Assembly (NCBI RefSeq): GCF_964355755.1
Contig: NC_092673.1
Span: forward strand, 26,967,648 to 27,031,647
DNA from: Antedon mediterranea
Lineage: Eukaryota > Animalia > Echinodermata
Length of the DNA: 64,000 nt
Direction of reading: 5' to 3'
Shown here: one piece after another, positions 26,733 through 62,710 of the stretch
Position numbering within the stretch: the first letter of the stretch is position 1
Layout: the number at the start of each line of letters is the position of its first letter
Made by a program: the position numbers and the translations under genes
Notes under the pieces: generated by a model
What the model saw: the letters and a program-made list of their open reading frames with translations, nothing else
Told to the model about the DNA's origin: nothing
Database searches by the model: none

Positions 26733-28178
26733 CTGGAAGAAAGAAATTAAGTATTAATATTGAGTTTTAAATGTTAGGTTTATAACGCATTACATAATAA
26801 GACATTATGCTACAAAATAACCCCTCTCTATTATTATAATGAATTTAACTGTTAGGTTAGGAAATTATATTTAATTATATGTATGAAATAGTATGATGTA
26901 ATGCAGAACAAACAAGAAAGAAGGGCACTCTGAGAGTGCATACCTCCATCAGAGTATAATTCCCCTACATATGATTTCCCCCGAAATTTTTTTTATTTTT
27001 GTGTCTTAGTGCAGAGTGTGATTAGGCTAATTGCATTACAACCTTGTGAATGCGAGTTAGTGTTGTAATGGTTATATATCCAGGTTTTTATACAGTTGAG
27101 ATCTCTGGTTCAATTCCTGCTGAGAAACCTTTTTTTTCATCATCTTTATTATTTTTTTTTGGTTATTATTATTATTGTTATTTTTTATTCTTAATAATAT
27201 TTTTTTTTTACTATGAACCTAATGTTACAATAAGATGCTCAGTAACAGCTCTCCGGCTTTTGAAAATTGTCTGCTATCTTTAAACACTATAGCAGGTCTG
27301 AAAATAATAATAAAATGTGGTCCAGATTTGGGATCCTGGTCCGGGTTTAAAGAAGTGATACATCTAATCTGTCACTTATGCATATAATGTAAGTCAATAT
27401 GTACCTGAGGTAGTTTTATTTATTTATTTTTTTCATATAAAGTTTTTAACTCTGCAACTTTTTATTACGGTTAATTTGTTACATTGATATTACTCATATC
27501 TAGGCTACTCAATTCATTATGTATTTTTCCCAAAAGGTCAAATTCCATTTAAAAAATCTAAAAATAGATTTAGATTTTCCCCATCATACTAAAATCAAAC
27601 AACCAATCAAATTAGACATTGCGATTGCATCATCCAATGATTAGGTAGTTTATTTACCTAAATGCATACTTATAACAACTCCCTGCTTATAGTAACAATA
27701 ACCACAGCCATAAAATTGTTATAATAATTGTAATAAAGTTATTATTTTTATATTACTTAATAATTTGCATTGTATAATAATTATGAACAAAAGTGAAAAA
27801 ACAAAGGGTCTGATTTTAACCTAATTTTCAAAACATTGCTAATATTACACATAGTACACAAAACAAACAAAAACTGTTTAAATATTCTAAAATTATTCTA
27901 AAATTAAAAATAAAATAAATAAGTAATAAATTAAATTCTTTGTTTCCACTGGACCAGTCATTCAAAATTCAACCAATAAATAAACGAAAGGTATCACAAA
28001 AAATAGCTGGAATTAATTCAACAAAATAATATAACAATAACTTTAACAAACACAAGTTTGCATAGATAATCAACATTAATTGATAAACAAGCCCATGATA
28101 ATAACATACTTAATCATTGACAGTATTTAATAGTAATTGGTAATATAAATATATACCTAAAGTGCAAAATATTGTTAC

Positions 28179-29205: not shown

Positions 29206-29411
29206 ATGTTTCGTGTTCTTTATGTGGTCTTTATTTTTCTTATTTTTCAAAGTGATATTTTAATCAAAAGTGCTGAACTGCCTGATCCAACAGAAGTACT
29301 ATGGCCAACAATATTTATACCAATACTTGTCCGTAATAAAGCACACACTTTGCCAACGTTTTTCGGGTGTTTAGAAAACCAAGACTATCCGAAGGATCGA
29401 ATTTCGATATG
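29206..29411 (+). CDS. COLGALT1: COLGALT exon 1 (signal peptide, start of first GT domain)
   Basis: MFRVLYVVFIFLIF...PILVRNKAHTLPTFFGCLENQDYPKDRISI(W); donor TG|gtaagt. Confidence 0.92.
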
Positions 29412-41400: not shown

Positions 41401-44400
41401 TGAATATGCCGTACCCTAATCTTAGCCAATCTTGGAGGTATACAGTATACATAACTTAGTAACGTACAAAATGCAGATTAGAAACTTTTGCATATGCAGC
41501 ACAAGCCTCATCAAGGAGCACCTTCGGTACGGAAAGTGCCCCTGAATAGGGGTTGACTGTAGTGTTAAAATATATTATTATTGCCCTTTCGTTCGTATCA
41601 CAGGAAAGTGTCCCTTTGATAGAGGTGTCAACTGAATAGGGGTGTCCCAAAAGAGGGTGTTCTCAAAATGAGTAAGACAACTTCTCTTGATGGTCATGTT
41701 CGGGCTCCACGTGGCTTAGTGGAAAAAGCAAGGCAATTAAACCAAGGTTTAGCTACAGTAGGCTTGTGGTTACAATACATGCTTGGTTTATTTGGATTGC
41801 CTCATTAGAACAAAACTATTGTATGTAAACTTACATTTTTTGCAAAAATCTGGTGGTAGTATTTCGATTTTGATGCTAAAACTTCTGGTCATAAAATCAA
41901 GAACTTTGCGAAGTGTGTAAAAATACACTAAAAAAGGTACGAATTGGCCGTTGAAACAACTGTACAATCACATGAGTATCATGAGTATAAGATTGATGAA
42001 AATGAATGAATAATAATAATAATGTTTACGAGACGAGATCACAATTGTTGCGTTTTATTTGTTGGACAATTTGAACTCTATGGCATTTAGTTACTGTACT
42101 ATTATTTCTATGCCAAGAGGAAATAAAGTTTTGCAACATCAAGAGTTTTGTATTATGTGTCTTTATTCTATTCATCCCTGATCTATTATGATGTCATTTT
42201 GACAAAGGATGCTAAATCATTATTTTGTATTTAATCTGTTTACAGACGCTTTCTTAAATTAAATTTATTTCACTTTTCTACCTTTTCCCCAGCTCTGTCT
42301 ACATTATCAATATAGTTTGATAAAAAATATGATGTGCCCATATATGGTAGTGATATGACATCATCATGTCCACATTTTTTGTCACACAAAGTTTGGTACA
42401 TAGTGAGCAGAAGAATCATGTCAAAGTTATTTTATTTTACTGCAGTACCTGTACTTTGTTTCTTTAACATGTTACGGCAAATTTAGCAAGATTGTTTAAA
42501 TCATTGTTCAGAGACTGATTGAAATGAAACAAACCAAAGTCACACATTATTGCAGTTTAAAACAAAATTAGTTACTGCAGTAACTGCAGTAGAGTAATTT
42601 ATAAATGTTCACATGATCCCTAACCATCATGAATGATTTGAGGAATTAAGCTGGAATACATGGAAGAACCAGAGTGGAAAAATATTTATTTACTTTCCAT
42701 TTGTTCACACTATTATAAAGCTAGGTAAACTTCCTGCCTGTCACCAACTATACACACTTGTCTGTCTGTACATTTAATTTGTCTTAATTTCTAGACAGAT
42801 TGTTTGACCTGAAAGGTCAATTCATACACTTACCGTACAATGCTTGGTTTCCTTCCGATAATTAGCACCACTTTAGGCTGTGTTCACATAAACAATTCAA
42901 TTGTCTTACTTAAGTATTTTATTACAGAAAATAGCATTCCTATATAGACATCCCATGTAAACTGAATTGATATGTGTCTCTAAATGTGTAAAAATAAACA
43001 GGTTGAAAAAATAAACTTCTAAAAAATGTAATAATTAATTTTAGTGGAGATCTAAGGTGGCTGATTTCCACCAAAGAAAAAAATCATTTTATAATAATAT
43101 GGCGCCCTAAATATACAATCTGTTCACACGTACATGCGCATGCGTAGTACATTAACAAACCTCTCAGCGCATTCACAGATTTTAGAAAGTCACGTGGTAC
43201 ATTACTGGCCATCTTTGTGTCCAACTATGCCTATGTAGAGTATGGAGTCGAGTTTTTTGCTTAAAAAATGTATAACATTCACAAGGTTTTAAATATCAAA
43301 ACAATCAATTTGTTTAAAGGTTTTTGTTAAAGACCCCTTCCCTGCAATTTTGGACGTTTTTTGGAAAATAATATATATATATCACTTTAAAAACATTAAA
43401 CCATGTCATTCCTTGTCTTAAATGTACGTTTTATGGTAAATTATGATAAAAAGTGAGAAACAATGCACTACCTAAGTAGCTCGCGGCGATCGACCTCTCG
43501 TGGACGGTCTTAGGCATAGCCTAGCTAGGCTTAGTTTTGTAGGCCTAGCTGGTAAACATCGGTAACGTACAAACATCGTACGCTAGCTATATACCTAGCC
43601 TGACGTTGTATAGTTGCTGCATTAATTGTCTTTCTATTTTTGCCAGACTCCGTTGATACAAATTGGGGAAAACCCGGTATTTTCGCTGAAAAGTTAGGAG
43701 TCTTCCATTTGTTTTGGCCTCACGATCGATCGAAAAGTGGGCGAATTACAGGTGAAAAACAAAAATATCAATCCTCGCGCAGTGCATTTTGGGATTTATA
43801 GCGGGCCGCTATAATTATTAGAATCGACTTATTTTTCACATTTTAACCGTTTAAAGACAAAAAAGTTATCGCAATATGACCATATAGTATTATTTTTACA
43901 TTAAATATAGTTTGTGATCTTAAATTAGATCTAAAAAACGTAGGGAAGGGGGCTTTAAGATAACCCAATCATAAAGTTACTGCGAAGATGATTTTAAACA
44001 ACAAAATGTAAAAACAATGCATTACTGTACAGAATCGCTGTACAAAATAAACGCGTAGAGCGTGTATGGAGCGCACAGCCAGAGCCGTTAAATTAAATGG
44101 ATTAAAGCTATTTTTTGTTTAAAATCATCAAAATAATGTTATTATTGATTTAACAAATTGATTGAACCCATTATTCAAAGTCGCAACTCTTATGGCTCTG
44201 GGTTTGTTGATGTACGCATGCGCATGTACGTGTGAACGGATTGTATAATTAGGGCGTTATAACGCCGTAATTAGGGCGTTATAACGCCGTATTATTATAA
44301 AAGAATTTTTTTCTTTGGCGGAAATCAGCCACCGTAGAGATCTGTACATAGATTATTGACAAAAAAAAACATGATCTGGAAAAAAAGTTGTGTTTTAAAA

Positions 44401-47400
44401 AAGATATTTTGATTTTTTAAAAGATGACCTAAATTTACTTCTTCTATTTACTTCATTTTTTTCAATTTTAACTCATTTCATTTTTAACTCATTTCATTTT
44501 TAACTCATTTCATTTACGCATCGCAGTTAGCAGAGCACTTGTTTACGGAAGACAAGAAAAAAAAAATGACATAATTATCCTTGTACAGAAATTATTGTGT
44601 TCCTTCCTGTGAAACTAGTTTACTGCCCTCTAGTGGCCAATTTTTCCAAAAGATTCCTGTTTTATTAAAGTCAGAGGGATTGAATTAAACACCTGCCTGT
44701 GATACAATAGAAGTATACGGACTGAAAGCAGAGTCCTCAGTGGCATAACAAGGGGGGGGGGGGGGGTTTAGGACTCCTAAGGGACCCACCAACGCTGGGT
44801 AGTTGCATTGGGCTTGGCCCCAGGGTTAGCAAACAAGCACTCATAACATAATCCTCAACTTGCTATACAATAATTTATTTCAGTAGTCATTGATAAAAAA
44901 TGTCCCTAGTCCCTAGTCAGTCATTCTGCTGCGCATTTGCAAATGTTTCTGAGCGTGTGCATAATGATTTGCTAACTTTTGTAAAGATTTAAGATCACTA
45001 CTATATACAACTATCCTTCACTAACTTTTTCATAATCTTGTGCCCTCCCCACTACCTATCTATGCACACCTGGTATTGCTTTGGGCTTGGCATATATCCT
45101 ATAAAAAGAATATAAAATTCGAACCAACAGAATGCTGTAAATCTTTATAAACTTAGGCCGGCTTTTTCTCCCTCCCAGTGTGTAATCATGCAGGGACACT
45201 ATTGTTCACAAAGGCTTTGATCCTACTGTATAAGCCTGGGGCAGTCCTTCCTTGTTGTAGCCAGATTAAAAGGATATGAAAATACCTTTCTATTGTGAAT
45301 GTGTAATTGATTTCCATGTGCAGTGGAGCACAGTTATCCAGCTAGGTCAGTTGTATTCAATTTACTTGAGAATCTTGCAGATATTTATTCAATCAAACTT
45401 ATATAGTAATTTTTTAAACAATATATCAATATTAAATACAAATAACATTTAAAACTTTGTACCGTAAAGGCGTTATGGAAGATTCATACAGTTTTTTTAA
45501 CACAGAATTTAGAATTATTCCACCAAGGTTGAACCTTAATTGACAACCAAACAGCCTTGGTATACCATGGTTTTATGCCACCCACCACTCCAGCATGCTT
45601 TTACCATATTTACAGTAAGGCACATCCATATGCCGATAACATTTATCAACTTGTTTTTAGGATCATAAGTTAATGTTTATGTTTGCACATATTTTTTTTT
45701 CATAACCAAATATTTTAACAAGCTGTGTATCTTTAATCAAGCCTAAATGCATACAGTTTAAACAAAAATAAACTTGTGTTTATCTTCAACATGCTTGATA
45801 ATTCCATGATAATTCCTCACACTCAAAATAACAATTGTAATTGGTTAATACTGGTTGAATTACTTGCTATGAATAAATGCTGCAGTACTAGACAGCCACG
45901 ACAAAATATTGTTCAAGGAAGAATGTACTAGGCTATACCATGTATGACAAAGTATACAGTAATCCCAGGGGGCAGTGACAGGACAGCTATGAGCACCCAG
46001 GTGCCCTGTAACTTATGAGGGCCCTGAGCAGTGCCAAGAGGAAAAAACAGGCATTAAAATATGTCGAAAAAGGCTAAAAAATACCCAAGGCCTCCAGCAT
46101 TGGAGGGCCTCAGGCCTCTACGTTATGCCACTGCCAGGGGGCCTGTCTGAAATTAAGATAAACATTATATTTTGCTTGTTTTTTTAAAATAAAGTTATTA
46201 ACCTGTTCTCATCTCTTTTCACTCATTTCTTCTAAAACTTTTTTAAAAGACACCTAGTTCTTCCAAACTTTTTTAAAAACACACTCGGTTCTTCCAAACA
46301 TTGTTTTAAAACACACTCAGTTCTTCCGAAACTCTTTTTAAGACACCTAGTTCTTCCAAAACTTTTTTTTAAGATACTCAGTTCTTCCAAAGATTTTTTT
46401 AAAAGAACACTCAGTTCTTCCAAAACTTTTTAAAGACACTCAGTTCTTCCAAACCTTTTTAAAGACAGTCAGTTCCTCCAAAAATTTTTAAAGACACCCA
46501 GTTCTTCCAAAACTTTTTTTAACTCATCCAGTTCTTCCAAAACATTGTTTAACACGCCCAGTTCTTCCAAAACTCTTTTTAACACACTCAGTTCTTCCAA
46601 AACTCTTTTTAACACACTCAGTTCTTCCAAAACTCTTTTTAACACACTCAGTTCTTCCAAAACTCTTTTTAACACACTCAGTTCTTCCAAAACTTTTTTT
46701 AAAACACACTCAGTTCTTCCAAAACATTTTTTAAACACACACAGTTCTTCCAAAACTTTTTTAAAACACACTCAGTTCTTCCAAAACTTTTTTAAAACAC
46801 ACTCAGTTCTTCCAAAACATTTTTTAAACACACCCAGTTCTTCCAAAACATTGTTTAACACACCCAGTTCTTCCAAAACATTTTTTAACACTCTCAGTTC
46901 TTTCAAGACTTTTTATTAACATACTCAATTCTTCCAAAGATTTTTTGATAAGAAAGAAAGTGAAAATATTTGTTTCATACCGCACACTTCCTGCTGTGTA
47001 TGTTGCTCTAAATGATTCCATGTATTCTGTATAAACTGCCGACTAAAGCATTATTTTGAAAATTACGAACATCCGGTAGTTTTGGATTGGATCCTGAAGT
47101 AGATATCATATTGATAATTGTTTAGCAAGCAAACACAAAAACTTGGCTCAAATCCCATCATTTTTTCCATTCATGCCGAGTTAAAAATGCAGCTGATCCC
47201 TATGAATTTAATACAGGAATAGTTTACTGGTTTCTACAGGGGCGGATTGCTATAAGCGGTCTATAACCGGTCTTAGCACTTAGCCGGCTATAATTCGTGA
47301 CGTAGCAAGTAGTCTTACATTATAGACCATTGCTATACCGCGGTCTAACCTGTAAACGGTCTTTAAAATTAAAGCCTACTCGAAGGAGTCTTAAAACAGT

Positions 47401-50400
47401 CTTAAACCTCTCTTTTTGTGACTTTTACGTATTATTTATCGTCAAAGACAACCAATAGAACGAGTTTTAAGTGTTAAATCAAATAATAACGGTGATTTTA
47501 TTCTTTATATAGCCCTAGAATAGATTTTCTTGCGTAGAAATGTACGTACTGTTATGATTGTGAATTGAACAAGCGTGACAAACATTACCTTATTTGGTAT
47601 TCTACACGCAAAGTACGCCCTCAATTTGTTACTTTACGCGGTCTTATCTAAGACTGTTTTTATAGCAATGGTCTAACAGGGGTGGCTTTAGTAAGACCGT
47701 CTATCAGATAAAGCCGGCTTTAATCGGGGAGTTAAGACCATTAGTTAAGACTGTTTTATAGCAATCCGCCCCAGTTTTTCTTTTCAAAGTACCGTAAATG
47801 TATTTGTAGCATTAAGCTCTGTCTACACTATCAAACTCTATGTGTAAATAAATGTGATGTGCCCATATATGGACATGATGATGCCATATCACTACCATAT
47901 TTGGGTATATCACTACCATATTTGGGCATATCATTACCATATTCATTGAAAGTATGGATGAAGTCTGTCTGTAGTGCCTGTAGAATGGACGTGACTCACA
48001 TCAACTTTTATTTATTTGAATATTTTGTAATACTTTTCTGAATCTCTTACACATAGGCATATTTTTTTAGAACAGGGCATTAGATTACCTAATAATTATT
48101 AGATTATAAATAATTATTTGTGAGACTAGTGCGATCCTTTGTTGGTCAAACTCAAAGAAAAATATATAAATATATATATTATTTTTTTCAGTAATTTGCC
48201 TTTGAATTTATATATATTATTTATATAAATGATTAAACTTATCAACTTTTTCATCTACTGTACTGATTCAACCTTCTGTATCTAAATATTTATCGTGGAA
48301 TATTTAGGATATAACATCTGTTTGAAATATAATTGATAAATAATTTACTAATAACTGAAATCAAAAATTATTATAATCAATATTGTAGTTTTTAACATAG
48401 TAAAATCTGTAGTCCGTCTTACTATTCAGTTACCTTCGCATTTGTTTAGTTGAACCCTGGAAAATTTATACTATTCATAAATTCAGTTACACTAATCACG
48501 ACAATTGAGACAACTTGAATAGAGATGGTGCGATGTTTTGAATAACGGCTCAATGAATGCAATTGAACAATAGGCACTTTGTCGCATACCTGCAGATTTA
48601 AATAACTTTGTGAATTCACGAAATGAGATTAATTTGGCACAATACAAATTAAATATACAGAATTGCTGACTTTGTCAAAAGTATTCAGTTATGTAAAAGT
48701 CAGAGAGAGTGGTTGTTATTCAACCTGTATTATTTAATGGAAAATTATTAAAGTATGAGGAAGTGGTAACAAAAAGAAGGGTGGGTGAATTGAAGCATAT
48801 GGGAATTATATTTTGATAAATAATTCAACAACTTTCATCATTTGAACCCTTGGATGTATTTTGTCCCCCCAAATTAATGAAAAATGAAGATTTATAAAAA
48901 TGTACTTTGAATAGGTCATTTTGTAGATTTAATCAAGTTATTCACTTCCAAAAATGAACAAAAATAATGGTTTCACTGTATAAAAAAAATCCCCAAAATA
49001 AACTATTAAATTTAGCCAAAAACCCACAGTCTAATAGACAAATTGACTATTTTTTGCTTAAAATACAAAATACAATTTTTCAGATAATTTTTTTTTTTAA
49101 TCCAATTTTTGGTTAAATTAATAACTATTATGTGACATTAAAATGGCAAATATTAAAAAAAAAATATTTTTACAAATTGTTTTTTCAGGGGGACAATATA
49201 TCTTTAACAAAATGGTTTTCATAGAGTTTTGGTATACAATGACATCATCCCAACATTATTTTGCAATATGAAAGATGTTTTGGCTGTAGAGGTAGAGAAA
49301 AATGAATTTTTCCACCAATGTATTATGGAAAATTGAAAAAAAAAAATGAACTTAAAACTTGTTTGATGTTGTGTAAATGCTTTAAGAATAGATTCACACT
49401 TGACCACTGTTTAGCATTGGTCAAGCGTGGATAGTCTGACTTACATCACTTAAAACTGACCCTTAGGCACTCTTGAACTAGGCTAGCTAAACTAGGTACC
49501 AATACCTCTCATAATAAAATAGAATTAGTCCTAGTGCTTGATTTGAATTCAATGGATACCTTTGTTCTGTATTGTTTGCAACCAGAACTCCTTGTCACTT
49601 GTCCCAATTTTTAGGACAATCATTTATAAGTTCCATTGTGATTGTAAGAATTTTATAATCTCTACTGTACTTTGAATGAACTGTCAACCCTGATGTTGCA
49701 AGTTATAGTAATTTTAACAAGTTTTTAACACATTTGTGTTGGGAATATGCACTAGCTACTCTTCATTTACAATAGAACCCCTCCTTTTGGACACCATTAT
49801 GCCACTATTCAGGAGACACACCCATAATAATGGCGATACTGTACTGTAAGTTAGGTGTTAAAAAGTACAACAAAAATAGTTTACTCGTGGACCTCCGCTT
49901 AGAATTTTAAAAATACCTTTGAATTTGATTCCTTTATTCCAGGTCAATTGTGTGAAACGTTCTCATCTCTCGTATTGGTGTAGAAATTCCTTTTTATATC
50001 CAAGTTTGATTATCTGAACCAGGGGTACTGATACGTTGTTAACCTCATGGTGAACTCGTTATTGTTGATTCTGTAGTTTTTAATTGTCTTTTTTCCATTC
50101 ATTTTATAGATAGTTTCTCTTTTAGTAAATCATAAAGATTATTCTGTACTATATAGTTATTGTTTAAAGGCTTCCATGTCGAATATACATTAAAAAAGTT
50201 AGTAAAGTTAGGTTTGCGGTACACCATGTGCTTTCAAAAGAAAATAAAGTATTTTTGAAAAAGTTTCTTCAGAAAAGGTTATAGCATACCAACCAAAACG
50301 TAAAGGTTTTCTGCAAAAAAAACAAAACAATTTTTTTTTGTATGTACGTACTCTAACAATTTGTTAAACTAGAGGGTGAGCTCGCTTCGCTCGCTCCCCC

Positions 50401-53400
50401 TCTAGGAAGTGTAGACGATGGTTCTCGGAATGATAATGTTCTCCTTATACATTTTCTGTCGGTTACCATTATTGAAAATGCTTGACATTCGTAAAACTAA
50501 ACTACTTTGTTTCACAGTGTTTTAGATGATTAAAAACATTTTAAAGTATAGTTTTTATTGTTTGGTAGGGCCCTTTGGGGAGGCGGAGGTCATTTGAGGG
50601 AGGTGCTTATTCGAGGGATATATGTTAAATTTTTTAGTTCTAATAATATGGTAACATTTATAATCAAATGAAATCCTCTCATAGATATGAAAAGTGGTAA
50701 AAAAGAATAACAAATGCTTGGTAAATTGCAGATAACAGTGCGGTGAATTCTACTACAAATAGTATAATTGTGTTATTATAAATATGTGGATGGACGTTTA
50801 TTAGATAGTTGGGTTGTGGGGTGGGGGGGGGGGGTTTATTATTCAAAGTGATGTTTTATTGGAGAGGCGTTTATTCAAATGAATACCATCCTAATAATTA
50901 TTAATACATTATTTAATTTAATCATCTTTTGAAACTAACTGCCGTGACAGAGTGGGCCCAAGAAAGAAGACATTACGGCTTGCAACATGGGCAGACATCT
51001 CGGTCCTAACGGGACACAGGAAGATAGCCTACAGTTATTCCTGCAAGCTTACTCAATAAAACTCAGCTATCGGGATTTCACTCGAAAAATGTCTTATCAA
51101 ATCTCCCTATGTAATTTTATAATACTATTCCCCACAATATATTCTGATTCTTTATGGCGTATATTTAATTTGATCTTTATTAATTTGCAGTATAATTCCT
51201 ATTATTTAACTACTGTACCTTCACACACGTGTGGTATGTTTTAAAATAAACAAAAAACTGAAATGGCTATGATAAATGGCCAATTTTTTTTTCGTCTTCC
51301 AAAGGGACACTGTATTGATTGATGGAAAGTGCCTGTTTCCAGTCACCTTTAGGGTCAAATCTATTATTTTAACTGCTCCCTTGTGTATAAAAGAGAGGAA
51401 ATATTTGAAACAAAGTTGAACTTATCTTAAACCCGGAAATTACTTTGACCGGGAAGAATTGAAATTGAGAGGAAAATCCAATGTTGAAATCATAAATGTT
51501 GTTAAAAAACTCTTTATAATATCTTCCTAAGATATAAATATGGAACAATAGCGTCGGCGTGCACACTAATGTTATCAAATCTACGTTTCGCGGTACATAT
51601 CGGATAGATAAGGTAGGTATCCAAGGCGGAGATTTGTAGAGAAGTTTTTGCATTGTGCTCGCCTATGTCAGAATTAACCATAATTTATATATAGATACAT
51701 TGTGCATTGACTTTAAAATACTGTACAAAATGGCAATCCCATTTCTGATGGCAATCCTGTTTTTGATGGCAATACCATATCTGATGGCAATCCTATTTCT
51801 GATGGCAATCCTATTTCTGATGGCAATCCTATTTCTGATGGCAATCCTATATCTCATGGCAATCCTATATCTCATGGCAATCCTATTTCTGATGGCAATC
51901 CTATTTCTGATAGCAATCCTATTTCTGATTGCAATCCTATTTCTGATTGCAATCCTATTTCTGATAGCAATCCTATTTCTGATTGCAATCCTATTCTTTT
52001 CAGGGATATTATAGAAGAACACCAGAATACTCTGAGATGTTAGAACGCAATATATCTGGCATAATCCAAGTTCCTATGATACACTCAACATATATGATTG
52101 ACTTACAACTACAGGTGTCGTTACAATTACAGTATTCACCGCCACCAGAGTACGAAGGCGATATTGACGACATGCTTATTTTTGCGTATTCTGCACGTAA
52201 AGCAAGTGAGTAGATTCTTATTTTATTTAATCACTTGTATAGTGCCGATAGTATTTGGTCTGAAAAATACACTTTTGGCAAAAAATAACCACCCTAGTCG
52301 AATGAATAAAGAGGTGTTAAATTGATAATAATTAGATTATGCAATAAAAAAATATTTGTGAAAAATTTATGTTTAATTTAATCTTTAATAATAATTTCAT
52401 TACAGAAAAAAATGCATTACATCGTTTGTTTTTTACAGAAATACCTATGTATATAATGAATGCTGCGTTCTTTGGTAGTCTTTCTACCCCAGCTGGTGTC
52501 CAGAACACGTTAGAAGAAGATGAACAACAAATGATATTCCAACGAATCGAGGTCATGGGTTAGTATCGTTTTGATTCAACAATAATAGGGAGGTTTCGCA
52601 ACCTTACGAATACGATAACGAAAACGGATACGTCATACATTTGTGAAACTTTTGAGCTGATCCCCATTTCATATTTGTAAAGCGTATTCGTGTTGACGAA
52701 TATCACCAGTCATGTTCGTAACTACAAAACGAGTATAGTTTTTGATCAATTTTGCACATTTTGCATTTGAATCAGGAATGATTCATGATTATAATATAAT
52801 TATAGATTTATTGAAAGTAATTTACTAAAGTAATTTACTAAAATGCCAAGTCAATTTTGATAAATAGCAGTTTTTAAAGTCCTCACTCGCTTTGATGTTA
52901 CGCTAGGCCTAGGCAGCCAAGCACCAAGCAACACGTCGTACCTGCGCTTCGCTCAAATTTACCGCAGTCATATTTTGGACGCGCCTCAATGTTTCGTTGC
53001 CATGCGAAACAGATTTGTTTATGGCTTAGGAAAACGAATACGTGTGCGTGACGTATCTGTTTTCGTTATCGTATTTGTAAGATTGCGAAACCTCTCTAAT
53101 AAACTGTTTGATCTACCGTAGATAAAGAAATGTAATATAATATTGTTCTGGTGGTAGAACAAGTCTTGGCAGATAGTGCCTTAACTGGCGGTCAAGTGTG
53201 CAAATCTGGCTCATTTGCACAATTGCAATAATAAGAGTTTATTCCAGTGTACTGTACAAAATCTTTAACATATTTTTGTTTTTTATTTTTTTAGTCGAAA
53301 ATGAGCCTATGCCATTGTCTGCGCATATCACTCTGCCTCCCAAACAGCTGTCTAAGTTTGGTGCAGATAAGATTTATATGATCAATTTAAAACGAAGACC

Positions 53401-56400
53401 AAAAAGAAGACAGCGAATGGTTCGATCGTTACATGAATTATCTTTAAATTATACCATTTTCAATGCTGTGGATGGAAAGTAAGTGTAAATAAAAGAAAGA
53501 TACAAAATGACATGCACTTTATTTTTATGTAAATTTATATTTTATTGAAGATTATAATTAAATTGTATCAGTTTTTAGCTTTTTGTTGATTGTCCTTTTC
53601 ATGTCATTGTCATTTTTTTTTTATAAATTAATATGGTGAATAAAAACAAAGGTGATACAAAAATTACATTAAGATTTGTGCCGCAAAATCATATCTTCCC
53701 ATCATTCATTATCTGAGCATCCTCACAAGGCTTTCCACCATCTAAAACTCATTTACTTTCCGAATTATTCATATTATGTAGGTTAGTAAGAAGTGTTCAT
53801 TTCTGGATGCCAGTAATTGCTTTCTAATGTCAATATTTTTTTATTGTAGACTGTTAACGGATGAAAAATTAAAAGAAATGGGAATTGATATGATGGAAGG
53901 CTATAAAGATCCCTTCCACGAGCGGATCCTAACTAAAGGAGAGATTGGATGCTTCCTGAGTCACTACAACATTTGGGTTGATGTAAGTGTATAGTCATTT
54001 TCAATAACGGATCCATTGGGTGTGCAGAATGGTTACTATCAACGCCGCAGTAAAAAAAAACTTATTGAATTTAGTGCCACCACACAGCCATTTGTTTTAT
54101 CCTATATTTTGTGGAAAGGTACATTTGCCCAAAGAATTTTGAAAATAATGAAATTGCTCCTTGAAAAAATTATTTACAGAGTTAATTTTACCAACTACCA
54201 ATGTGTGAACAACCTGGACCTCAATGCAATGAAATATTTGGTAATATTCTTAGTAATTCTAAGTTACTGTACACCTCAAGATAGTTTGTTTGTTTTGTTC
54301 AATGGGTTCCTATGACATTTGTTTTTTATTAATTTGCCATGTATTGTTATCTAAAATATTATTGATAATGTTTTGGGGTGTTTTTTTCAGATGATTGAAA
54401 AAGGTTATGAGACAGTTATTGTATTAGAAGATGATGTTAGATTTGAAGCTTTTTTTACGATGAAGCTTAAAAAACTTTTAAATGAACCACAAAAGTTAGA
54501 CATAGCATGGGAGTTAATGTAAGTGGCGAATAAATGTTATATTCATTGCACAAATCATGATTTTGTATGTCGTAAGGGATATTGGACTAGCATGTGAGAG
54601 GCATGCAGTGGGACAGCCAGTCGACAAATCGTGTCAAATTTCGACTCGGAGAGGGCGCCCTACTTTTCTAATTTAGTTCAAAATTGCTAAATTTTAGGGT
54701 GTTGGAAAAACACAATATTTGTAAATTTAGCTGATTATCGGAAAAATATTGTTAGTGAAATAAATTCATAAATGGTTTTAATATATTGTCATGTAAAATT
54801 AAATGTATTTGAACAAAACGATAATCTGTAATTTAACGGCAAAATCAACCAATGTCTTTTTTCCGAAATTGTACCCTAGAAAATCATTAAAATAAAATAT
54901 TTAGAAAAATTGAACAGTCCTGAATTTAAAATCCCTGTTAGAAAAATTAATAATCTACAGAATACGATATTAAGATACAAAATTCGGTGGTTGGGATGCA
55001 GCTCCGACTATTCAAACTAAAGGTACCACTATTTGTTCCATCGAAAACTAGCGAAACCGCCATATTGTAAACACATCGTCATCGTGTTTATGAATTTATT
55101 TATATCGAACGATATACGCGATGTTTATAATTGTCCGCGTAAAAGAATTCATATAAATAAATACATTCCAATACAACGTATATTATTACTTGTTTATTTA
55201 TCACAGTATACATTTTAGTTGAGGAATATTTATCATAACTATTATAATAGCTTTTATACGAGTCCGAGGCCTAGCCCTATTAGCGACCGATTGTTCCAGG
55301 GGCGGAAAGTCACTTAGTGACGTTGTGATCGGGCGCGTCGGGCCTAGCTAATATTAATAATATGACCTGAAATAAGCGGCTAACAAGAACTGTTATATAC
55401 TTGTGATGAACAAACAAGCAATTAGATTGAATAACAAATTATTTATTCATTTTTTTTGGGTAAAAACATGTACAAACTAGTACTGTATAATATAAATTAT
55501 AATAATAGTAATATTAAACTAATACAGTATTAATAAAATATAAAATAGGCCTAACAATAACATACAATAAATATTCAATTTTTAAGGTCTACCACATGAC
55601 AATAACATAATTTACAGAGTATAGTGTAGTAGGTTTGCATTCAACATAAATATTTGTATTGTAATTCATCTAAATCCTCTGCAACATACATATATATTTG
55701 TAATTCAACATTTTGTTTTAAATAATTAAATTATAGTTTGGGTATGACAATGTCGGTAGGTACCGGTGTCATCTTTGTATCCACTTCACTCTCAGTTTGA
55801 AGTCACAAAGACAAAGAACTCTGCATCATCAACGATTCCTGAAAGTGTCAGAAAAAATAATAAATATTATTTAAAAAAATGTTAATGTCTGGTTGTATAT
55901 ATAATTATAATATTATATGATGACATAAAAGTAAGGCAAATGGAAGCTGTATTTTATTAATTAAATTACACTTACAGTATTTACTATTATTTATTTATAT
56001 AATCTAGGCCTACTAGCACTAGTAGTCTAGCTAGGCATCTATTGAGCCTAATAAATCAAATAATAAATGAAAAATAAAATAATAATATTAATACTGATTG
56101 AAAAAAAGTATTTTGTTGGGGGGGGGGATCAGCGATCAGATCACCAGGCTAGGCCGGCCAGGACCAATGATACTCGTAATCAGTACAACTTATAAACGAC
56201 TATCGGATCAGCATCAACACAGTACAACACACGTCTCGCTATCGCCTATACTGACACACGTGTCTCGCGTTGCCGAAACCACGCTCACAGCTAGAAAATG
56301 TACCTACCTTTCGAGGCCTGAGAATACACCAACAAATTTTGAACAGGATAGAAATATATCATACTCGATTAAACTAATATTATTCTTGATAAAACAATTG

Positions 56401-59400
56401 ATTATAATGTTTTTAATTTGTTGGGATGCACCTCCGACTATTCAGAAAATGGACAACAAAACAGTAGTCAAATCGTACCACATTTATAAATTTCACGAGT
56501 CCCGACTTCAGTCGCCGAATGTATTGTATTAGCTTCGGTTTCTTTGAAGGAAACCGATTGGTTATTCAATAATACTTATTAGAAAATGCTTTTACCATAA
56601 TAGGTAATGTTGGGCGGTTCTTAAATATTCATGAGAGCTTAAAATAAAACAGCACTTATTTGCTAGGCGACGAAAAATCGTGGTTTCAGTTTTCAACGAT
56701 AGGTGGCGCTTCAAAATCGTCAATGCGGAAGTAAGTCGATTTTACACGATTTAACGGTCAAAACGCGAAGTGGCTTTCCCACTGGCATGGGTTCGAGACT
56801 TATCTGTGCTATATTGCTTGTATCCTTTGGCCAGTAATACTTTACTCTCATTGCATCGTCCTTCAGATGGAATGTAAAGCAGTTGATCTGAAAATGGACC
56901 CTCTCAAAGAACAATCTTGCACAGCACAAACTGCCATGCATGCAATCCACCACAGAATATATGTAACTCTCCTCTCCCTCTTTTTGGTGTAGCTAATTAT
57001 ACATATACAGTTCAATACTTTTCACAGATCAGTGCTCACACCACTTACCGATTTCATCTATAAATACGACTATGCTTTTGTAACCCTTCAAATAAAAGAC
57101 CTCTACAAATGTATCCCCTTAGGCTCTACTTGGCCCTGACACAAAACACAATATAAGTAAAGTGCTTAATTATAATATTTTAAGAAACCAGTTTTAAATG
57201 AGCATCTAATGGTCACTTGTCTGAAACGTTTGTGAGAGTTAAAAACATTGTTTGATCATTTACGGTAACTAAATAAATCAACAAATATTTATTTCTTCCA
57301 GATACCTTGGACGTAAGATATTAAACCACCGGCTTGAATCATGGGTCAGTGGATCGGACATGCTGCTATGGCCTAGCTATTCATATTGGACGTTAGGATA
57401 TATTATTAACCAATCAGGTGCCAGGAAACTTGTGGAGCAGAATCCTTTAGGTAAAATGGTCCCTGTTGATGAATACTTACCCATTATGTTTGACCAACAT
57501 CCGGAGTAAGTAATTAATTAATTTTAATTTTGTTTAATTTTAAGTTTTCTGATAATATTTAAAGTTAAGGTCTCTGATACGGATTTTTTATTATTATTAA
57601 AAAATTGAAAATAGAGGTTGGCACATCATTAATTTTACTTGATGTAATAGGGTACCTTAAGGGACCATGTCAAATTATTCTAATGCAGTTACTGCAGTAA
57701 TTATTTTGTTTTCTCTTTAACCTGTTTATGCAATTATTTAGCAAGCTTTTTTTTAGGTAATCATACAACACACTGTTTTATTGCAGAGACTGTCTCATAA
57801 ACTCACATTGAAATTAAATAAATTATACATTGCTGCAGTAAAAAAATGTAACTACTGCAGCAGTAGGGTCTTTCACACATGTACCGGAACGGCGCATCCA
57901 ACGTCAATGTTTCGTTTTCATGATGCTCCACGCGACTATGCACCAATCTATATTTGCCCGCGTCGGACCGGAACCCAGCCGGAACAAGTTTGAAAGACCC
58001 TCTATAATCTAATCATTCAACTATCATTTTTCATTGTCCTAATCATCATCATTTAATAGTTGTAATCATTTGTATTCTTCATTCATCATTCATATTTATT
58101 ATATTTTTTAATATTTTTATATTTTTTTTTACTTCACACACAGGGGCGGATCCAAGACACACCCCCCCCCCCCCTAAAATGTGCAAATTGTAATGCAAAA
58201 GATAGGAGATCAAATGAAGCTCAGCCCATCATTTCACCATTTTTAGGCCTTGCCCAAAATCCTGGATCCGCCACTGACGCATTTCAAGCATTCCTTAGTG
58301 CATGTAGTTTGTACTTTGCATATCTTGAATGTTGTTTTTTCACACTTTAACTTCAGCCATAATGTTTCATTCATTTCATTGACTCTTACGTATGCAAACC
58401 GCATGTGTACAATAAAGCTTGGGTCCCACTTGCGTTGCTCCTACAGTGGGAACCAAGCTTAAGATCAAGAAACGTATGTTTTACATGCATAAATCAGTTT
58501 CTGACGAAATAACAAATATATTTAACTTTACATAATGTTAGTTATGATGAAATCAAATAGATTATGAAAAGTGGAGTGTATTTTAGATCAATGGTATTAA
58601 CATTGATGGGTTAGATAACTTTTAATTTGTCGCTTTTTTTATAGGTTAATTCATATCGTACACATTTTATATACGTTTTTTACAGAGACTTATGGAAAGA
58701 ACAATTTACTAATCGTAATCTTATAGCATACTCCGTCTCGCCTCTCATAATGTTTCCCACTCATTATGTCGGTGATAAAAATTACTTAAGCGACACGGAG
58801 GCCTCAAATATCTGGGATCACGTTTGCAACGAGGACGATAAAACACGCTGTCTAGCCAAGAAAGATCGACAAAACATTAGCAACCATGAATTGAGGCAAA
58901 GTGCTAATTTGAATTTACCCAGTGGACACTCCGAGTTATGACACACTTGGTGAGAAAAACCGATCATGTTATATGACAGTTCCATCTCATCTTAGCCTAG
59001 AAAATGCATCCACACAACCATATAGTAGTAGAGTTCTGAAGACCCTATATCTATCCAGTTTCTATTGAAACAAATGGAATATCTTTAACCATCATCCTTG
59101 ATTTCGATCCAAGTCGGCCCTAAACCGTCTCGGCCAAAGTCAAGTTTGCCCCAAGTCAAGTCGGCCCCAAGTCAACTCGGCCTCAAGTCAACTCGGCCTC
59201 AAGTCAACTCGGCCTCACGTCAACTCGGCCTCGGTCAACTCGGCCCCGTTAAAGTATGGAACGCAAAAAGTGCAAATGAAGGGGATTGATAAAATAATAT
59301 TTCTTCACAATTTTTTAACTATAAATAATTCTGACTTTTAATGAATATTAATATTTAGACAATAATATATTTAGGGAAAAAAAATAGGAATGATTTCACC

Positions 59401-61587
59401 AACTTTCCTTTATTTACGTTTAATAAAATTTCAAATTGCCTTCCTGCGCCTTTGGCAGCTTTTTCGATATCTACAACTGCTACGTGTTTTCACTGACCGG
59501 GGGATTCCCCTTTTTTAAAAACGCAAATCATGGACAAAAACGATATGTACGATCATTTTTTCTATGGCTAAATGGTGGAACGTAGGCCTCCGTCTTCGAT
59601 TTACTAAAATGCGGTACCTGCACGTGACGGTTTAGGGCCGACTTGACCTGCACCCGTTTAGAATATCACTCTCTATAAAATAAAAAAAAATAAAAAACAG
59701 ACTTTGAACCATTTAAACAGAAATAACTTTTTAATGAAATCTCAAAATCATAAATTGTTTATATAATGGGATTATTATCATTATTTTATTTATTTTAAAA
59801 TTTGCATACATGTGAATGATTGCATATTGAGTGCATGCTTCTGTTTGTACTACTCTGTGTAGTTTATGCTTCCAATTATCACCTGTAATCTTATAATTAA
59901 CTTTGAACTTTGACTTTTATGTAAATTTAGGTTGTAGTTCAGACCAGTCAAAGGTCAACAAGTCAAAGTTATATTAGATTATGGGCGATTTTTGTGAATT
60001 ACTGTACAATACATTGTTTGCATTAACAAAACATTGCATGATTTATAATAAGTTACTTCATTCATTTTTAATAATGCATGTCATTATTAAATTATCATTC
60101 TTTGCTGGTTTATTGAATCATTTACAAATTTTTACTGAACGTTCAAAGGGCTTATTAAACCGCATGCTTGCGCGCAGTAACACAATTTTGAAAATTGTTC
60201 ATGTTTGCGGGTCCAACATCTTTGTGGAGAAGATAAAGACAGTTTAGTTGAATAATAAAATATTGCATTAATATTACATGACAATGGTGATGTATGCTAT
60301 TATCATCTACAATTGATGAGATACTGTAGTCCTTTGAGAAACCCCTATAAGGGGACACTTTCTTATGAAACAAATAAGGGACAATACATATGTTTCATTG
60401 CCAACGCTATAAAGAATACTTTTTGGTCCTAAAGATGTCCTATTAATAGTATTCCTCATCTTGTGTTTGCCAACTTTACTTTGATGAAATAATTTTTTTT
60501 GTCATTTAATAATAATATACAGTATTACCATATAATTATATTATATCCTAAAATATGTTTTGTTTTGCCATATAATATAATATAGTACAGTATTAACATA
60601 TAATAATATTTGATATATTTTAAGTATTGTTTTTATTTATACTGTACACTGATCCTGATCTCTAACTTGTGTATATGTACCTTACTATTAGTTTTTTAAA
60701 CAAATTTCCAATCCTAAACTTATTTTCCTTCTTACTAATTCAAAACTTGTGTGTCTGTCTGTTTGTCTGTCTGTGTGTCTGTATGTGTGTCTGTCTGTAT
60801 CTCTGTCTCTGTATGTGTGTCTATCTGAATTTCTGTGTGTCTGTCTGTGTATATGTTGGTCTGTCTATCTGTCTGTATTTCTGTCTGTCTGTCTGTCTGT
60901 CTGTCTGTGTGTCTACCTTACTTTTAAAGAAACTCTTTCAGCTTCTTCCTTTTATCTTCTGCTTCACCTATCAGTCTGTCCTCAACTTGTGTATGTCTGG
61001 CTATTAACTATCTTGCTTTTAAATGAATTATCATAGCTTTTTCCATTTTTCCTCTGTCATAAGATAATGTCAACAAATACATATTGCATAAAAATAGATT
61101 TTTTAAATTTTAATTACATTTATAACAATATTAATGAGTGCAATTAATATAGATACAGTAATAGTAATGTATTAGTGATTTTAATAGTATTTTTGCATAA
61201 AAATTATGAAAATAATATTTATTATAGTATTAGTAGCATTATGATGATAAAACTATACTACTACAAATAAATTAACAATTCTGTTTTTACAATGTTTTTG
61301 TAATAACCAATTTAATGAAGTTGTTCCTTTTAATTTGCAGAGAAAGTTGGAAAGAGCACTTTTCACCTCGTGACCTCATAACCTACTCCGTCCAGCCACT
61401 ACTAGTGTACCCAACTCACTACTACGGGGAACCTAACTATTTCAGCGACACGGAGGCGTCAAAGTTATGGGAGAGCGTCTGCGAAAATCACGATTCACTT
61501 GAATGCCTTGAATTGAAGAATAAACAAATGGGTGAGAAAAGTTTGGAGAAAGAAGGAACGGATCAACATATACATCCCGAGTTATGA
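29206..61587 (+). CDS. COLGALT1: procollagen galactosyltransferase (COLGALT/GLT25D; GT25 family), 10 coding exons, two alternative last exons; ~598 aa (exon 10a) or ~595 aa (exon 10b)
   Basis: join(29206-29411,36835-37063,41206-41340,52004-52205,52439-52558,53295-53478,53850-53982,54391-54518,57302-57505, then 58686-58941 or 61341-61587). All junctions GT-AG and in phase. Signal peptide and family motifs [69 protein letters not shown], C-terminal xxEL. Likely co-orthologous to vertebrate COLGALT1/2/CERCAM. Confidence 0.93.
32539..33362. mobile_element. PIF/Harbinger-like non-autonomous element in COLGALT intron 1
   Basis: TIRs ggccctgtttctgctgc / gcagcagaaacaggccc flanked by ATT on both sides; many subterminal ataccgtat/atacggtat motifs. 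Confidence 0.7.
34422..34645. repeat. degenerate ~60-bp tandem repeat (~4 copies)
   Basis: gtcaacttttatgttgtc...agaagttataaactt recurs. Confidence 0.7.
36222..36811. repeat. MITE whose 3' half is amplified into five ~101-bp tandem units
   Basis: acgccacta(g) recurs at 36391, 36492, 36593, 36694 and 36794; a single-copy relative in inverted orientation lies at ~45973-46133. Confidence 0.85.
36835..37063 (+). CDS. COLGALT1: COLGALT exon 2
   Basis: ttag|G ATA AGA AGT GAT CAC (WIRSDHNED...LRQAALEEARRQWAQYMF); donor TTT|gtaagt. Confidence 0.93.
37219..37285 (+). mobile_element. 3' tail of an L2-type LINE or related SINE
   Basis: tgtaaagcgcattg...aatgcgctctat stem-loop followed by (att)n, resembling L2-clade 3' ends. 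Confidence 0.4.
39955..40595. mobile_element. ~640-bp Kolobok-like MITE, family D copy 1 (intron 2)
   Basis: TTAA-actccccttccctac ... gtagggaaggggtct-TTAA; near-identical reverse-complement copy at 43327-43958. Confidence 0.85.
40724..40825. mobile_element. Tc1/mariner(pogo)-like mini-MITE
   Basis: TA-CAGTAGAAC ... GTTCTACTG-TA with internal ggggacacc/ggtgtcccc; related fragments at ~41530-41660, ~49770-49845, ~60330-60450 and ~61765-61875. Confidence 0.65.
41206..41340 (+). CDS. COLGALT1: COLGALT exon 3 (DxD motif; absent from the ORF track)
   Basis: ttcag|AIDADNFLENKETLKILVSAKKPMIAPMLESTTMYSNFWAGTTEH|gtaagt; 135 nt, phase 0-0. Confidence 0.93.
43047..44344. mobile_element. element with ~110-bp inverted termini hosting the family D MITE
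   Basis: ggtggctgatttccaccaaagaaaaaa...cacacgtacatgcgcatgcgta...aacaaacc (~43057-43160) is inverted at ~44201-44333. Confidence 0.7.
43327..43958. mobile_element. ~630-bp Kolobok-like MITE, family D copy 2 (intron 3, inverted relative to copy 1)
   Basis: TTAA-agaccccttccctgc ... gtagggaagggggct-TTAA; colinear reverse complement of 39955-40595. Confidence 0.85.
44621..44640 (-). promoter_or_regulatory. CTCF-like binding motif
   Basis: Reverse complement TTGGCCACTAGAGGGCAGTA closely matches the bilaterian CTCF core consensus; occupancy unknown. Confidence 0.5.
46231..46945. repeat. ~30-bp minisatellite, ~23 copies
   Basis: Unit ~aacacactcagttcttccaaaactcttttt; source of the repetitive spurious ORFs in the track. 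Confidence 0.93.
47240..47771. mobile_element. PIF/Harbinger-like MITE
   Basis: TIRs GGGCGGATTGCTATAA ... TTATAGCAATCCGCCC with CAG duplicated on both sides (CWG-type TSD). Confidence 0.8.
48853..49207. mobile_element. Kolobok-like MITE, family A copy 3
   Basis: gatgtatt(t)tgtcccccc ... cagggggacaatatatctttaa with the same interior as 603-933. Confidence 0.7.
51088..51550. repeat. dispersed repeat shared with ~10421-10725
   Basis: atctccctatgtaattttataatactattccc...tttaatttgatctttattaatttgcagtataatt and aacccggaaattactttgacc occur at both loci in the same orientation. Confidence 0.7.
51730..51997. repeat. 18-bp minisatellite, ~15 copies, abutting the exon 4 acceptor
   Basis: Unit at(g/t/a)gcaatcctatttctg; last unit runs into ctattcttttcag. 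Confidence 0.93.
52004..52205 (+). CDS. COLGALT1: COLGALT exon 4
   Basis: cag|GYYRRTPEY...VPMIHSTYMIDL...DDMLIFAYSARKA; donor A|gtgagt. Confidence 0.93.
52439..52558 (+). CDS. COLGALT1: COLGALT exon 5
   Basis: ttttacag|(K)IPMYIMNAAFFGSLSTP...QRIEVM; donor G|gttagt; phase 1-1. Confidence 0.88.
52586..53098. mobile_element. MITE with ~50-bp TIRs occupying most of COLGALT intron 5
   Basis: tagggaggtttcgcaaccttacgaatacgataacgaaaacggatacgtca ... tgacgtatctgttttcgttatcgtatttgtaagattgcgaaacctctcta. Confidence 0.8.
53295..53478 (+). CDS. COLGALT1: COLGALT exon 6 (start of second GT domain)
   Basis: ttag|(V)ENEPMP...DKIYMINLKRRPKRRQRM...AVDG(K); donor AA|gtaagt. Confidence 0.93.
53850..53982 (+). 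CDS. COLGALT1: COLGALT exon 7 (absent from the ORF track)
   Basis: tag|[44 protein letters not shown]|gtaagt. Confidence 0.94.
54391..54518 (+). CDS. COLGALT1: COLGALT exon 8 (EDD motif; absent from the ORF track)
   Basis: cag|MIEKGYETVIVLEDDVRFEAFF...AWEL(I); donor AT|gtaagt. Confidence 0.93.
54602..56789. mobile_element. old degenerate TIR element filling most of intron 8
   Basis: catgcagtgggacagcca...aaatcgtgtcaaatttcgact is imperfectly inverted at ~56735-56789; internal direct repeat ttgggatgcasctccgactattca at ~54991 and ~56421. Confidence 0.45.
57302..57505 (+). CDS. COLGALT1: COLGALT exon 9 (absent from the ORF track)
   Basis: ccag|YLGRKILN...[44 protein letters not shown](E); donor GA|gtaagt. 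Confidence 0.94.
58141..58276. mobile_element. short hAT-like MITE
   Basis: caggggcggatcca ... tggatccgccactg termini; similar mini element at ~62335-62481; no clear TSD. Confidence 0.55.
58686..58941 (+). CDS. COLGALT1: COLGALT alternative last exon 10a (ends HSEL)
   Basis: ttttttacag|A GAC TTA TGG...: DLWKEQFTNRNLIAYSVSPLIMFPTHYVGDKNYLSDTEASNIW...GHSEL*; in phase with exon 9. Confidence 0.88.
59105..59656. mobile_element. non-autonomous DNA transposon with 18-bp subterminal repeats
   Basis: Left end carries ~8 caagtcaactcggccy units (59110-59247); right end gggccgacttga is the reverse complement of the left-end caagtcggccc. Confidence 0.6.
60749..60915. repeat. (TCTG)n/(TG)n compound microsatellite
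   Basis: Directly visible. Confidence 0.9.
61341..61587 (+). CDS. COLGALT1: COLGALT alternative last exon 10b (ends HPEL)
   Basis: tttgcag|A GAA AGT TGG...: ESWKEHFSPRDLITYSVQPLLVYPTHYYGEPNYFSDTEASKLW...HIHPEL*; in phase with exon 9. Confidence 0.88.
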
Positions 61588-62710
61588 CGTCGTTGACATT
61601 ATCAATGTAGACTTGTTAATGACTTTAAAATTCCTCCAAGCTAGGAAGCATCGGCGCGTAATTTTAGTAGGTTCGTAACAAATTTCAAATTGATCTATTA
61701 TATTAGACTGAAGCATTTTAGGAAAATAGTTACAAAAAGTATGTCTTGTTAATAGAACTCATTTGTAGCGCCTCTTTCAAAGGACAAATGAGGGTCAATG
61801 TATGATCAAACCTCTATTTAGGGGACACCCCTATTATTGGTACACCCTGTTTTGTCCCTTTTATAGGGGTTCTACTTTCTAGTCATGTTAGCGTTTCTAG
61901 GTATCCTATTCGATTTATCCATACTGACTGTGTTATTATTGGTGCTATAATGTTCTGTATTGTCAACAATATAAATATTTATTATATTATATATTTTTGT
62001 AATCCTTGCCATAATTGTATCTTTTTTACTACTGTACTTTTTATAACATCTCAGAATGTGTACATGATTATTCTGCCAGTGAAAATCAGTTTTTAATTCT
62101 TTGTTATTTTTGCTTCAATTCATGATTCAATTTTATATTCTTCTACAGTGGGCGTTTTGATTTTTGCCCGTAATATGACACGCTATGTGTGCCAAAATGT
62201 TTGTTTTTTTAGGGATATTAATCTGCCATCTAGGACCATAGAAATATTATACTTCACTATATAATATCTATTCTAGAACTTCAAACCAATAAATGGGTAC
62301 TGGAAAAGACAAGAATAAAACAGCAGTTTAATTCGAGGGCGGATCTAGCCGGTAGCGCTAAGACGCACTTCCCCCTTTTGACAGCTAAAATCAACTATGT
62401 TTTGATATATGTTTTAGACGGACACCTAACTATTAATGTTAAGAATGAATTAATCATGTAGCGCTCCTAGATTCGCCCCTGTGCGTTACTAACGTTCAGC
62501 CTAAAAAAGGAACCACTGGTGTAAATGGGTAGGCCTACTAGAAGGCCTCTTAAGATAATAAAATTCCTATTTGTTATGTTATTGTAGTGAATGATGTTTT
62601 CATTTATTGATTTTTTATGTTTTTAATAGTGAAACAAACTAAATAAATGATGTTAAAAAATTTAATAAAATTTGAATCGTATTTTTTCATTGTACAATAT
62701 CAACATAACA

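Follow-up and report, generated by a model that had tools for sequence, protein, structure and literature searches.

In KRAS, alternative C-terminal exons swap the tail of the protein, and the swapped tail sets its localisation. The 4A exon of this gene carries its stop codon at its 3' end and is spliced to exon 4B, which is then untranslated, and both exons can occur in the same mRNA, without mutual exclusivity (PMC5945503). Among human substitutions derived from tandem exon duplication, 77 of 236 are C-terminal, as in GNAO1, and have been ascribed to alternative polyadenylation (PMC8373072); convergent tandem-exon events in orthologues are described as common (PMC9741552). COLGALT has been described as an ER-resident enzyme that is held there by its last four residues. 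Human COLGALT1 is retained when RDEL forms its C-terminus and secreted when RDEL is hidden behind a tag (PMC2877668), and it dimerises through its N-terminal domain (PMC12987934).

The window analysed here is a stretch of 64,000 nucleotides from the crinoid Antedon mediterranea, in which the gene under study is COLGALT and both copies of its last coding exon, termed 10a and 10b, are intact. In RefSeq, XP_071948001.1 (procollagen galactosyltransferase 2-like isoform X2, Antedon mediterranea) is 100% identical to exon 10b in its C-terminal part, and XP_071948000.1 (isoform X1) has the same first 514 residues as isoform X2, followed by 10a. An equivalent isoform pair exists in Anneissia japonica (XP_033127178.1 and XP_033127179.1), with divergence past residue 512, and for two of the two crinoids found, automatic annotation has already entered both isoforms in RefSeq. 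The protein contains an N-terminal GT2-type and a C-terminal GT25 domain (Pfam PF13704 and PF01755), and the EDD, YW, DE, and SDTE motifs and the equivalents of R351/R354, G377, C412, and K470 occur once each in all four crinoid isoforms. Similarity to human COLGALT1 is extensive both by sequence (E 2.5e-167) and by fold (TM 0.85/0.94 to 9evj_A). AlphaFold predicts similar folds for the two isoforms (mean pLDDT 88.3 and 88.0), with low confidence for the lid (542-550 and 542-547) and the tails. A sensitive tblastn search found no further duplicated exon of COLGALT in the window, and Rfam gave no match in it. Head to head with COLGALT, the minus strand at 24722-26746 holds a stop-to-stop frame of 674 residues with a P-loop-like GGPFSGK and a repeated C-terminal unit, for which Pfam gave no match at E 0.01. 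The features of the locus are given below in window coordinates, where X1 is a sequencing run whose kind was guessed and which is probably RNA.

29206, plus strand: start codon of COLGALT.
29206..57505, plus strand: shared coding exons 1-9 (signal peptide, GT1 domain, and most of the catalytic GT2 domain), placed by tblastn of the RefSeq proteins and by Pfam PF01755 and PF13704; internal exon ends are approximate.
57302..57505, plus strand: exon 9, the last shared exon, with the YW and catalytic DE motifs and the donor GTAAGT (joints of run X1 and sequence).
58686..58949, plus strand: exon 10a, a stop-bearing cassette with the lid loop and the HSEL tail (joints 57505>58686 and 58949>61341 in run X1; RefSeq isoform X1).
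58762..58824, plus strand: lid-loop codons of 10a, equivalent to human H560-E580, with Val at the T562 position at 58768-58770 (sequence comparison; PMC12987934).
58825..58851, plus strand: C-x7-C pair of 10a (sequence).
58927..58941, plus strand: C-terminal HSEL and stop codon of 10a (sequence).
58950..58955, plus strand: splice donor GTGAGA, 8 nt past the 10a stop, joined to the 10b acceptor (X1 joint and sequence).
61341..61587, plus strand: coding part of exon 10b, giving the lid loop and the HPEL tail if 10a is skipped and untranslated if 10a is included (joint 57505>61341; RefSeq isoform X2).
61417..61479, plus strand: lid-loop codons of 10b, with Tyr at the T562 position at 61423-61425 (sequence comparison).
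61480..61506, plus strand: C-x7-C pair of 10b (sequence).
61573..61587, plus strand: C-terminal HPEL, with Pro at -3, and stop codon of 10b (sequence).
61588..62458, plus strand: probable common 3' UTR that extends to 62458 or beyond, with AATAAA at 62288, 62314, 62557, 62642, and 62664 (X1 contigs 61341-62202 and 62173-62458; hexamers).

The initial annotation of this DNA had described two homologous exons after exon 9, and this description holds in detail. Each acceptor, at 58686 and 61341, consists of a pyrimidine tract and CAG in the same phase, and the reading frames from 58687 (10a) and 61342 (10b) are open for 84 and 81 codons, with stop codons at 58939-58941 and 61585-61587. The identity of 31 of the first 56 residues that had been counted by hand was reproduced exactly, and BLASTP aligns the copies with 33 of 60 identities (E 4e-27). 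The many silent changes reported between them are found in 15 of the 32 identical residues of the first 60 codons, and the flanking introns are indeed without similarity, with in-register matches of 29/100 upstream and 30/100 downstream. Nei-Gojobori estimates for 10a versus 10b (dN 0.29 and dS 1.03 over 43 codons; dN 0.39 and dS 1.12 over 60 codons) agree with the proposed purifying selection on both copies, at a dN/dS of 0.28-0.35 (about 0.3). The C-x7-C pair and the HSEL and HPEL ends were also correctly recognised, and the pair is present in all four crinoid copies. The NIS sequon, which had been noted in 10a and not in 10b, is a feature of 10a in Antedon only, and it was rejected as a conserved difference between the exons because 10a of Anneissia is without it. 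That the second exon is no assembly artefact is borne out by contigs of the DNA runs X2 and X4, which cross each exon into its own flanks, these runs being one sample and possibly the source of the assembly. Within the coding sequence of 10a and 10b, run X1 is listed with a single difference, at window position 61431 in 10b, where a third codon position changes silently.

Comparison of the two crinoids helps to place the duplication in time. Over 60 residues, Antedon and Anneissia are identical at 39 positions in 10a and at 50 in 10b, compared with 32-34 for the cross pairs, and the shared exons are identical at 402 of 484 positions. In a tree of 24 rows and 60 columns, of which columns 44-60 are filled for crinoids only, support is 99/94 for the 10b pair and 92/88 for the 10a pair. 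A separate duplication in each species was rejected (p-AU 0.020 and 0.007), and a single clade of all four crinoid copies is neither shown nor rejected (p-AU 0.43). The copies thus pair with each other across the two species, in agreement with the old exon duplication that had been claimed, and the likeliest origin is in the crinoid line before the Antedon/Anneissia split. The two genera belong to different families; the literature gave no date for their split among the matches listed. The term "ancient" used in the initial annotation is therefore apt in that the duplication predates this split, but too broad in that it is seen in crinoids only.

Both copies are conserved in two of the two crinoids found, the Anneissia pair being known from annotated proteins alone. 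A second copy of the lid was found in none of 277 other proteins with the lid motif (of 284), among which one C-x7-C-like pair lies at another offset, and alternative last-exon isoforms were seen in none of 20 non-crinoid clusters among the members listed, with a divergent Schistocerca member set aside. This range test covers annotated proteins, with sea urchins as the only echinoderm outgroups. A profile search of representatives at 50% identity added 146 new proteins, which included no recognisable further crinoid and none with two stretches. A 10a-only query against longer proteins returned 0 of 14 candidates, which is a sensitivity miss because the 10a isoform sits in a known isoform cluster. 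A metagenome scan reduced 205 candidates to one locus, an intronless distant homologue. This COLGALT homologue (L001:1445-3100) lies on a metagenome contig, is 33% identical, and has Tyr at the T562 position. Judged from these comparisons, the duplication looks crinoid-specific.

Exon duplication has also affected another part of COLGALT in other animals. RefSeq isoform pairs of Lingula (P0031/P0134), Ruditapes (P0044/P0142), Mya (P0088/P0144/P0145), and Dreissena (P0085/P0292) carry different but homologous versions of a catalytic-domain segment of about 24 residues that directly follows AVDGK. The segment corresponds to window positions 53850-53930, and Mya X1 carries both copies in tandem, which points to a separate duplicated COLGALT exon. 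In scallops (P0043/P0138, P0054/P0139, and P0069/P0293) and in five Mytilus species (P0294-P0304), an optional segment of 15 residues occurs near residues 300-325.

With regard to splicing, the initial annotation had presented 10a and 10b as mutually exclusive last exons that are swapped by alternative splicing/polyadenylation. The two upstream junctions that it predicted are both seen in run X1, in which three GT..AG joints occur: 57505>58686 (depth 28), 57505>61341 (depth 64.1), and 58949>61341 (depth 89.4), with one contig per joint and short sides of 27, 27, and 31 letters, respectively, where the rule of the tool is 31. The third joint, which has depth 0 in the DNA runs X2 and X4, puts 10a and 10b in one mRNA and contradicts mutual exclusivity; it uses a donor that had been missed, TTG/GTGAGA (58949/58950). 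The X1 contig on 10a continues unbranched into 10b through this canonical donor, and the X1 depth of 41 in the bin 58870-59041 equals that of the 10a contig alone (41.06), so that no contig reads past the donor. Neither AATAAA nor ATTAAA occurs from the 10a stop to 59422, and the first AATAAA past 10a comes about 480 nt further on, amid sequence rich in repeats. The X1 depth past the donor, which the 10a contig explains in full, and the hexamer-free stretch make 10a a cassette and 10b the common last exon, and we are highly confident of this architecture, in which a cassette with its own stop codon is joined to 10b. A pair of terminal exons that exclude each other and are polyadenylated separately would conform to how C-terminal tandem-exon substitutions are usually produced (PMC8373072), and a hole between contigs proves nothing, so that in some tissues the transcript might stop after 10a; with the unbranched contig, the canonical donor, and the hexamer-free stretch against it, this model is very improbable.

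Other features of run X1 bear on the abundance of the two forms. A contig of 1003 nt (depth 73.3) has exon 9 at its end, and exon 6, 4 kb upstream, is covered by another contig of equal depth; we infer that they are one spliced contig. Based on the two upstream joints, 10a inclusion is about 30%, a rough value from contig depths. Run X1 also has intron contigs at depth 14-35 and hence contains precursor RNA or DNA. Contigs at depth 23-25 cover window positions 57723-58715, from the 3' part of intron 9 into exon 10a, and may represent precursor RNA, partial intron retention, or DNA. The inverted repeats between 10a and 10b are short or resemble transposon ends, and no pairing element for exon choice was seen among them. 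Just past 10a, at 59110-59650, lies a high-copy element that is bounded by inverted ends of 23 nt and contains a tandem repeat of 16 nt; it looks like a non-autonomous transposon.

Nonsense-mediated decay follows a rule of 50-55 nt between the stop codon and the last junction. The 10a stop codon lies 8 nt from the last junction, and the inclusion mRNA should therefore escape decay. This position of the stop, where decay should not act, also bears on the possibility that 10a is a decaying exon, a poison exon, or an assembly artefact without a working protein. Although its minor share in X1 (in the rough estimate above) and its faster evolution could be taken in that sense, the intact frame in two species (with tails of 84 and 83 residues), the dN/dS of about 0.3, and the DNA contigs that cross both exons leave this explanation scarcely credible.

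The duplicated exon aligns to the human segment that contains H560 and the lid loop Y561-E580, in line with the earlier statement that the swapped segment combines part of the catalytic domain with the C-terminal ER signal. In human COLGALT1, the lid becomes ordered over UDP, S569A and T571A nearly abolish activity, and one wall of the acceptor cleft is formed by Y561 and T562, of which T562A stays active (PMC12987934); D570A is inactive (PMC12003778), and T571A has also been reported to abolish activity (PMC11897130). The equivalents of H560, Y561, S569, D570, T571, and E572 are kept in all four crinoid sequences. Since both copies retain the essential lid residues and share the catalytic motifs, both isoforms are probably active enzymes. 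The position of T562 is occupied by Val/Ile in 10a and by Tyr in 10b in both species. Among 116 matched outgroup hits (of 118), 108 have Thr and none Tyr, and the 137 matched proteins of a wider set (of 146) comprise T 94, V 21, A 10, I 4, L 3, F 3, S 1, and Y 1. The difference is, on this comparison, conserved but within the natural range, and the swap between Val/Ile and Tyr may add kinetic tuning.

A different use of the same cassette would be that neither isoform leaves the ER and the exchange of the lid loop mainly tunes catalysis or collagen-site preference. The exon does encode the lid that closes over UDP, with Y561/T562 walling the acceptor cleft, the residue at the T562 position differs between the copies in both species while being mostly Thr in outgroups, and a GT2 segment is swapped by a duplicated exon in other lineages too. 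However, human T562A is still active, and the position varies in the wider set and is also Tyr in L001, which leaves this a possible but rather unlikely account of the main difference between the isoforms.

The C-termini suggest a difference of another kind. Exon 10a ends in HSEL in both species, and 10b ends in HPEL in Antedon and HPDL in Anneissia. In a KDEL screen of 77 variants in HeLa cells, position -3 tolerated all residues but proline, and at -2 Glu was preferred to Asp (PMC2140024). HSEL fits these rules and HPEL/HPDL breaks the rule for -3, as established with an AKxEL reporter and human receptors, which differ from HxEL and the crinoid receptor. Of 269 distinct non-crinoid COLGALT tails, 222 end in [ED][LF], and Pro at -3 occurs in 0 of the 222. 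Since proline at this position failed in the screen and is absent from these tails, splicing is predicted to set ER retrieval, such that inclusion of 10a would yield a firmly retrieved enzyme and skipping a weakly retrieved one. Whether subcellular location is the main isoform difference is, in our estimation, evenly balanced. HDEL binds tighter than KDEL, and His at -4 is stronger than Lys (PMC8248988); His at -4 could offset the proline at -3 in the 10b tail. Between the species, the last eight residues of 10b are identical at seven positions and the preceding linker at 1 of 12, which argues for selection on the motif and would be expected equally of a signal that still works and of one that has been tuned. 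Moreover, the N-terminal dimerisation domain is common to both isoforms, and heterodimers of 10a and 10b forms could thus be retained anyway.

A stronger version of this prediction is that splicing turns the ER retrieval of COLGALT on and off, with the 10a-skipped enzyme, whose mRNA is the more abundant in run X1, active in the Golgi or the matrix and possibly taking its lysyl-hydroxylase partner out of the ER. This is tentative and, in our view, doubtful. If it were true, feather stars could glycosylate collagen late or extracellularly, for example in connective tissue that is being remodelled or regenerated.

At the other extreme, the isoforms may be nearly equivalent and the copies kept for a tissue- or stage-specific share of enzyme or for a change in 3' UTR or mRNA behaviour. 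All essential residues and the H..[ED]L ends are common to both, purifying selection by itself does not show divergent function, and 10a has evolved faster between the species than 10b and the shared exons, as under relaxed constraint. Nevertheless, the proline at -3, the Tyr versus Val/Ile difference, and the distinct tail motifs are specific to each copy and kept in both species, and near-equivalence appears unlikely. The reading that we prefer, with middling confidence, is that the last coding exon exists twice, that 10a is a cassette spliced onto 10b, and that two likely active enzymes result, the predicted difference between which lies mainly in how firmly the ER holds them. Skipping of 10a gives the mRNA 9-10b and the tail HPEL, and inclusion gives the mRNA 9-10a-10b, in which translation ends within 10a at HSEL and 10b remains untranslated; this mRNA would probably escape nonsense-mediated decay. 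HSEL would be retrieved by the KDEL receptor and HPEL/HPDL, with its proline at -3, is predicted to bind poorly, so that the inclusion ratio would set the share of enzyme in the ER versus the Golgi or outside.

Literature on COLGALT/GLT25D splicing, isoforms, invertebrates, or crinoids contains no description of this exon arrangement among the matches listed, a scope that leaves aside most subscription papers, and COLGALT is absent from the main text and one supplement of PMC8373072 and from the main text of PMC9741552. Human COLGALT1/GLT25D1, with its paralogues COLGALT2 and CERCAM, shares the two GT-A domains, the catalytic motifs, and the lid loop with the crinoid enzyme, but it has a single last exon that ends in RDEL, with Thr at 562 and without the C-x7-C pair, and its diversity comes from paralogous genes. 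In Lingula and the heterodont bivalves, as in the crinoids, a single gene encodes two homologous copies of a stretch of the protein, and this stretch lines the GT2 substrate site (PMC12987934); the duplicated exon there is internal, however, the C-terminus is unchanged, and the event is separate. Crinoids, a brachiopod, and heterodont bivalves thus each diversify the catalytic domain of COLGALT by exon duplication.

The layout of 10a and 10b is that of KRAS 4A/4B, in which a stop-bearing upstream exon is joined to the downstream exon, and in Antedon it is documented by a stop codon 8 nt from the donor and by three joints in one run. The two systems differ in that KRAS 4A may derive from NRAS rather than from tandem duplication (PMC9882654), whereas 10a and 10b are tandem duplicates, and in that KRAS swaps a membrane anchor, whereas what is exchanged in COLGALT comprises a luminal retrieval signal and, in addition, some of the active site. 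Neighbouring homologous exons in the same phase that encode alternative C-termini are what defines C-terminal substitutions derived from tandem exon duplication; as in the human class (PMC8373072), the last coding exons of COLGALT are homologous and conserved and yield two C-termini by alternative use, but COLGALT uses cassette splicing, unlike the alternative polyadenylation to which that class is ascribed. With the lid and the retrieval signal as their only differences, the two natural isoforms offer a ready test of whether galactosylation extends beyond the ER and of the role of the lid in substrate choice; if the isoforms are equivalent, the locus is one more ordinary tandem-exon event. 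COLGALT joins the known class of tandem-exon C-terminal substitutions, to which an ER retrieval set by splicing would be the specific added prediction.
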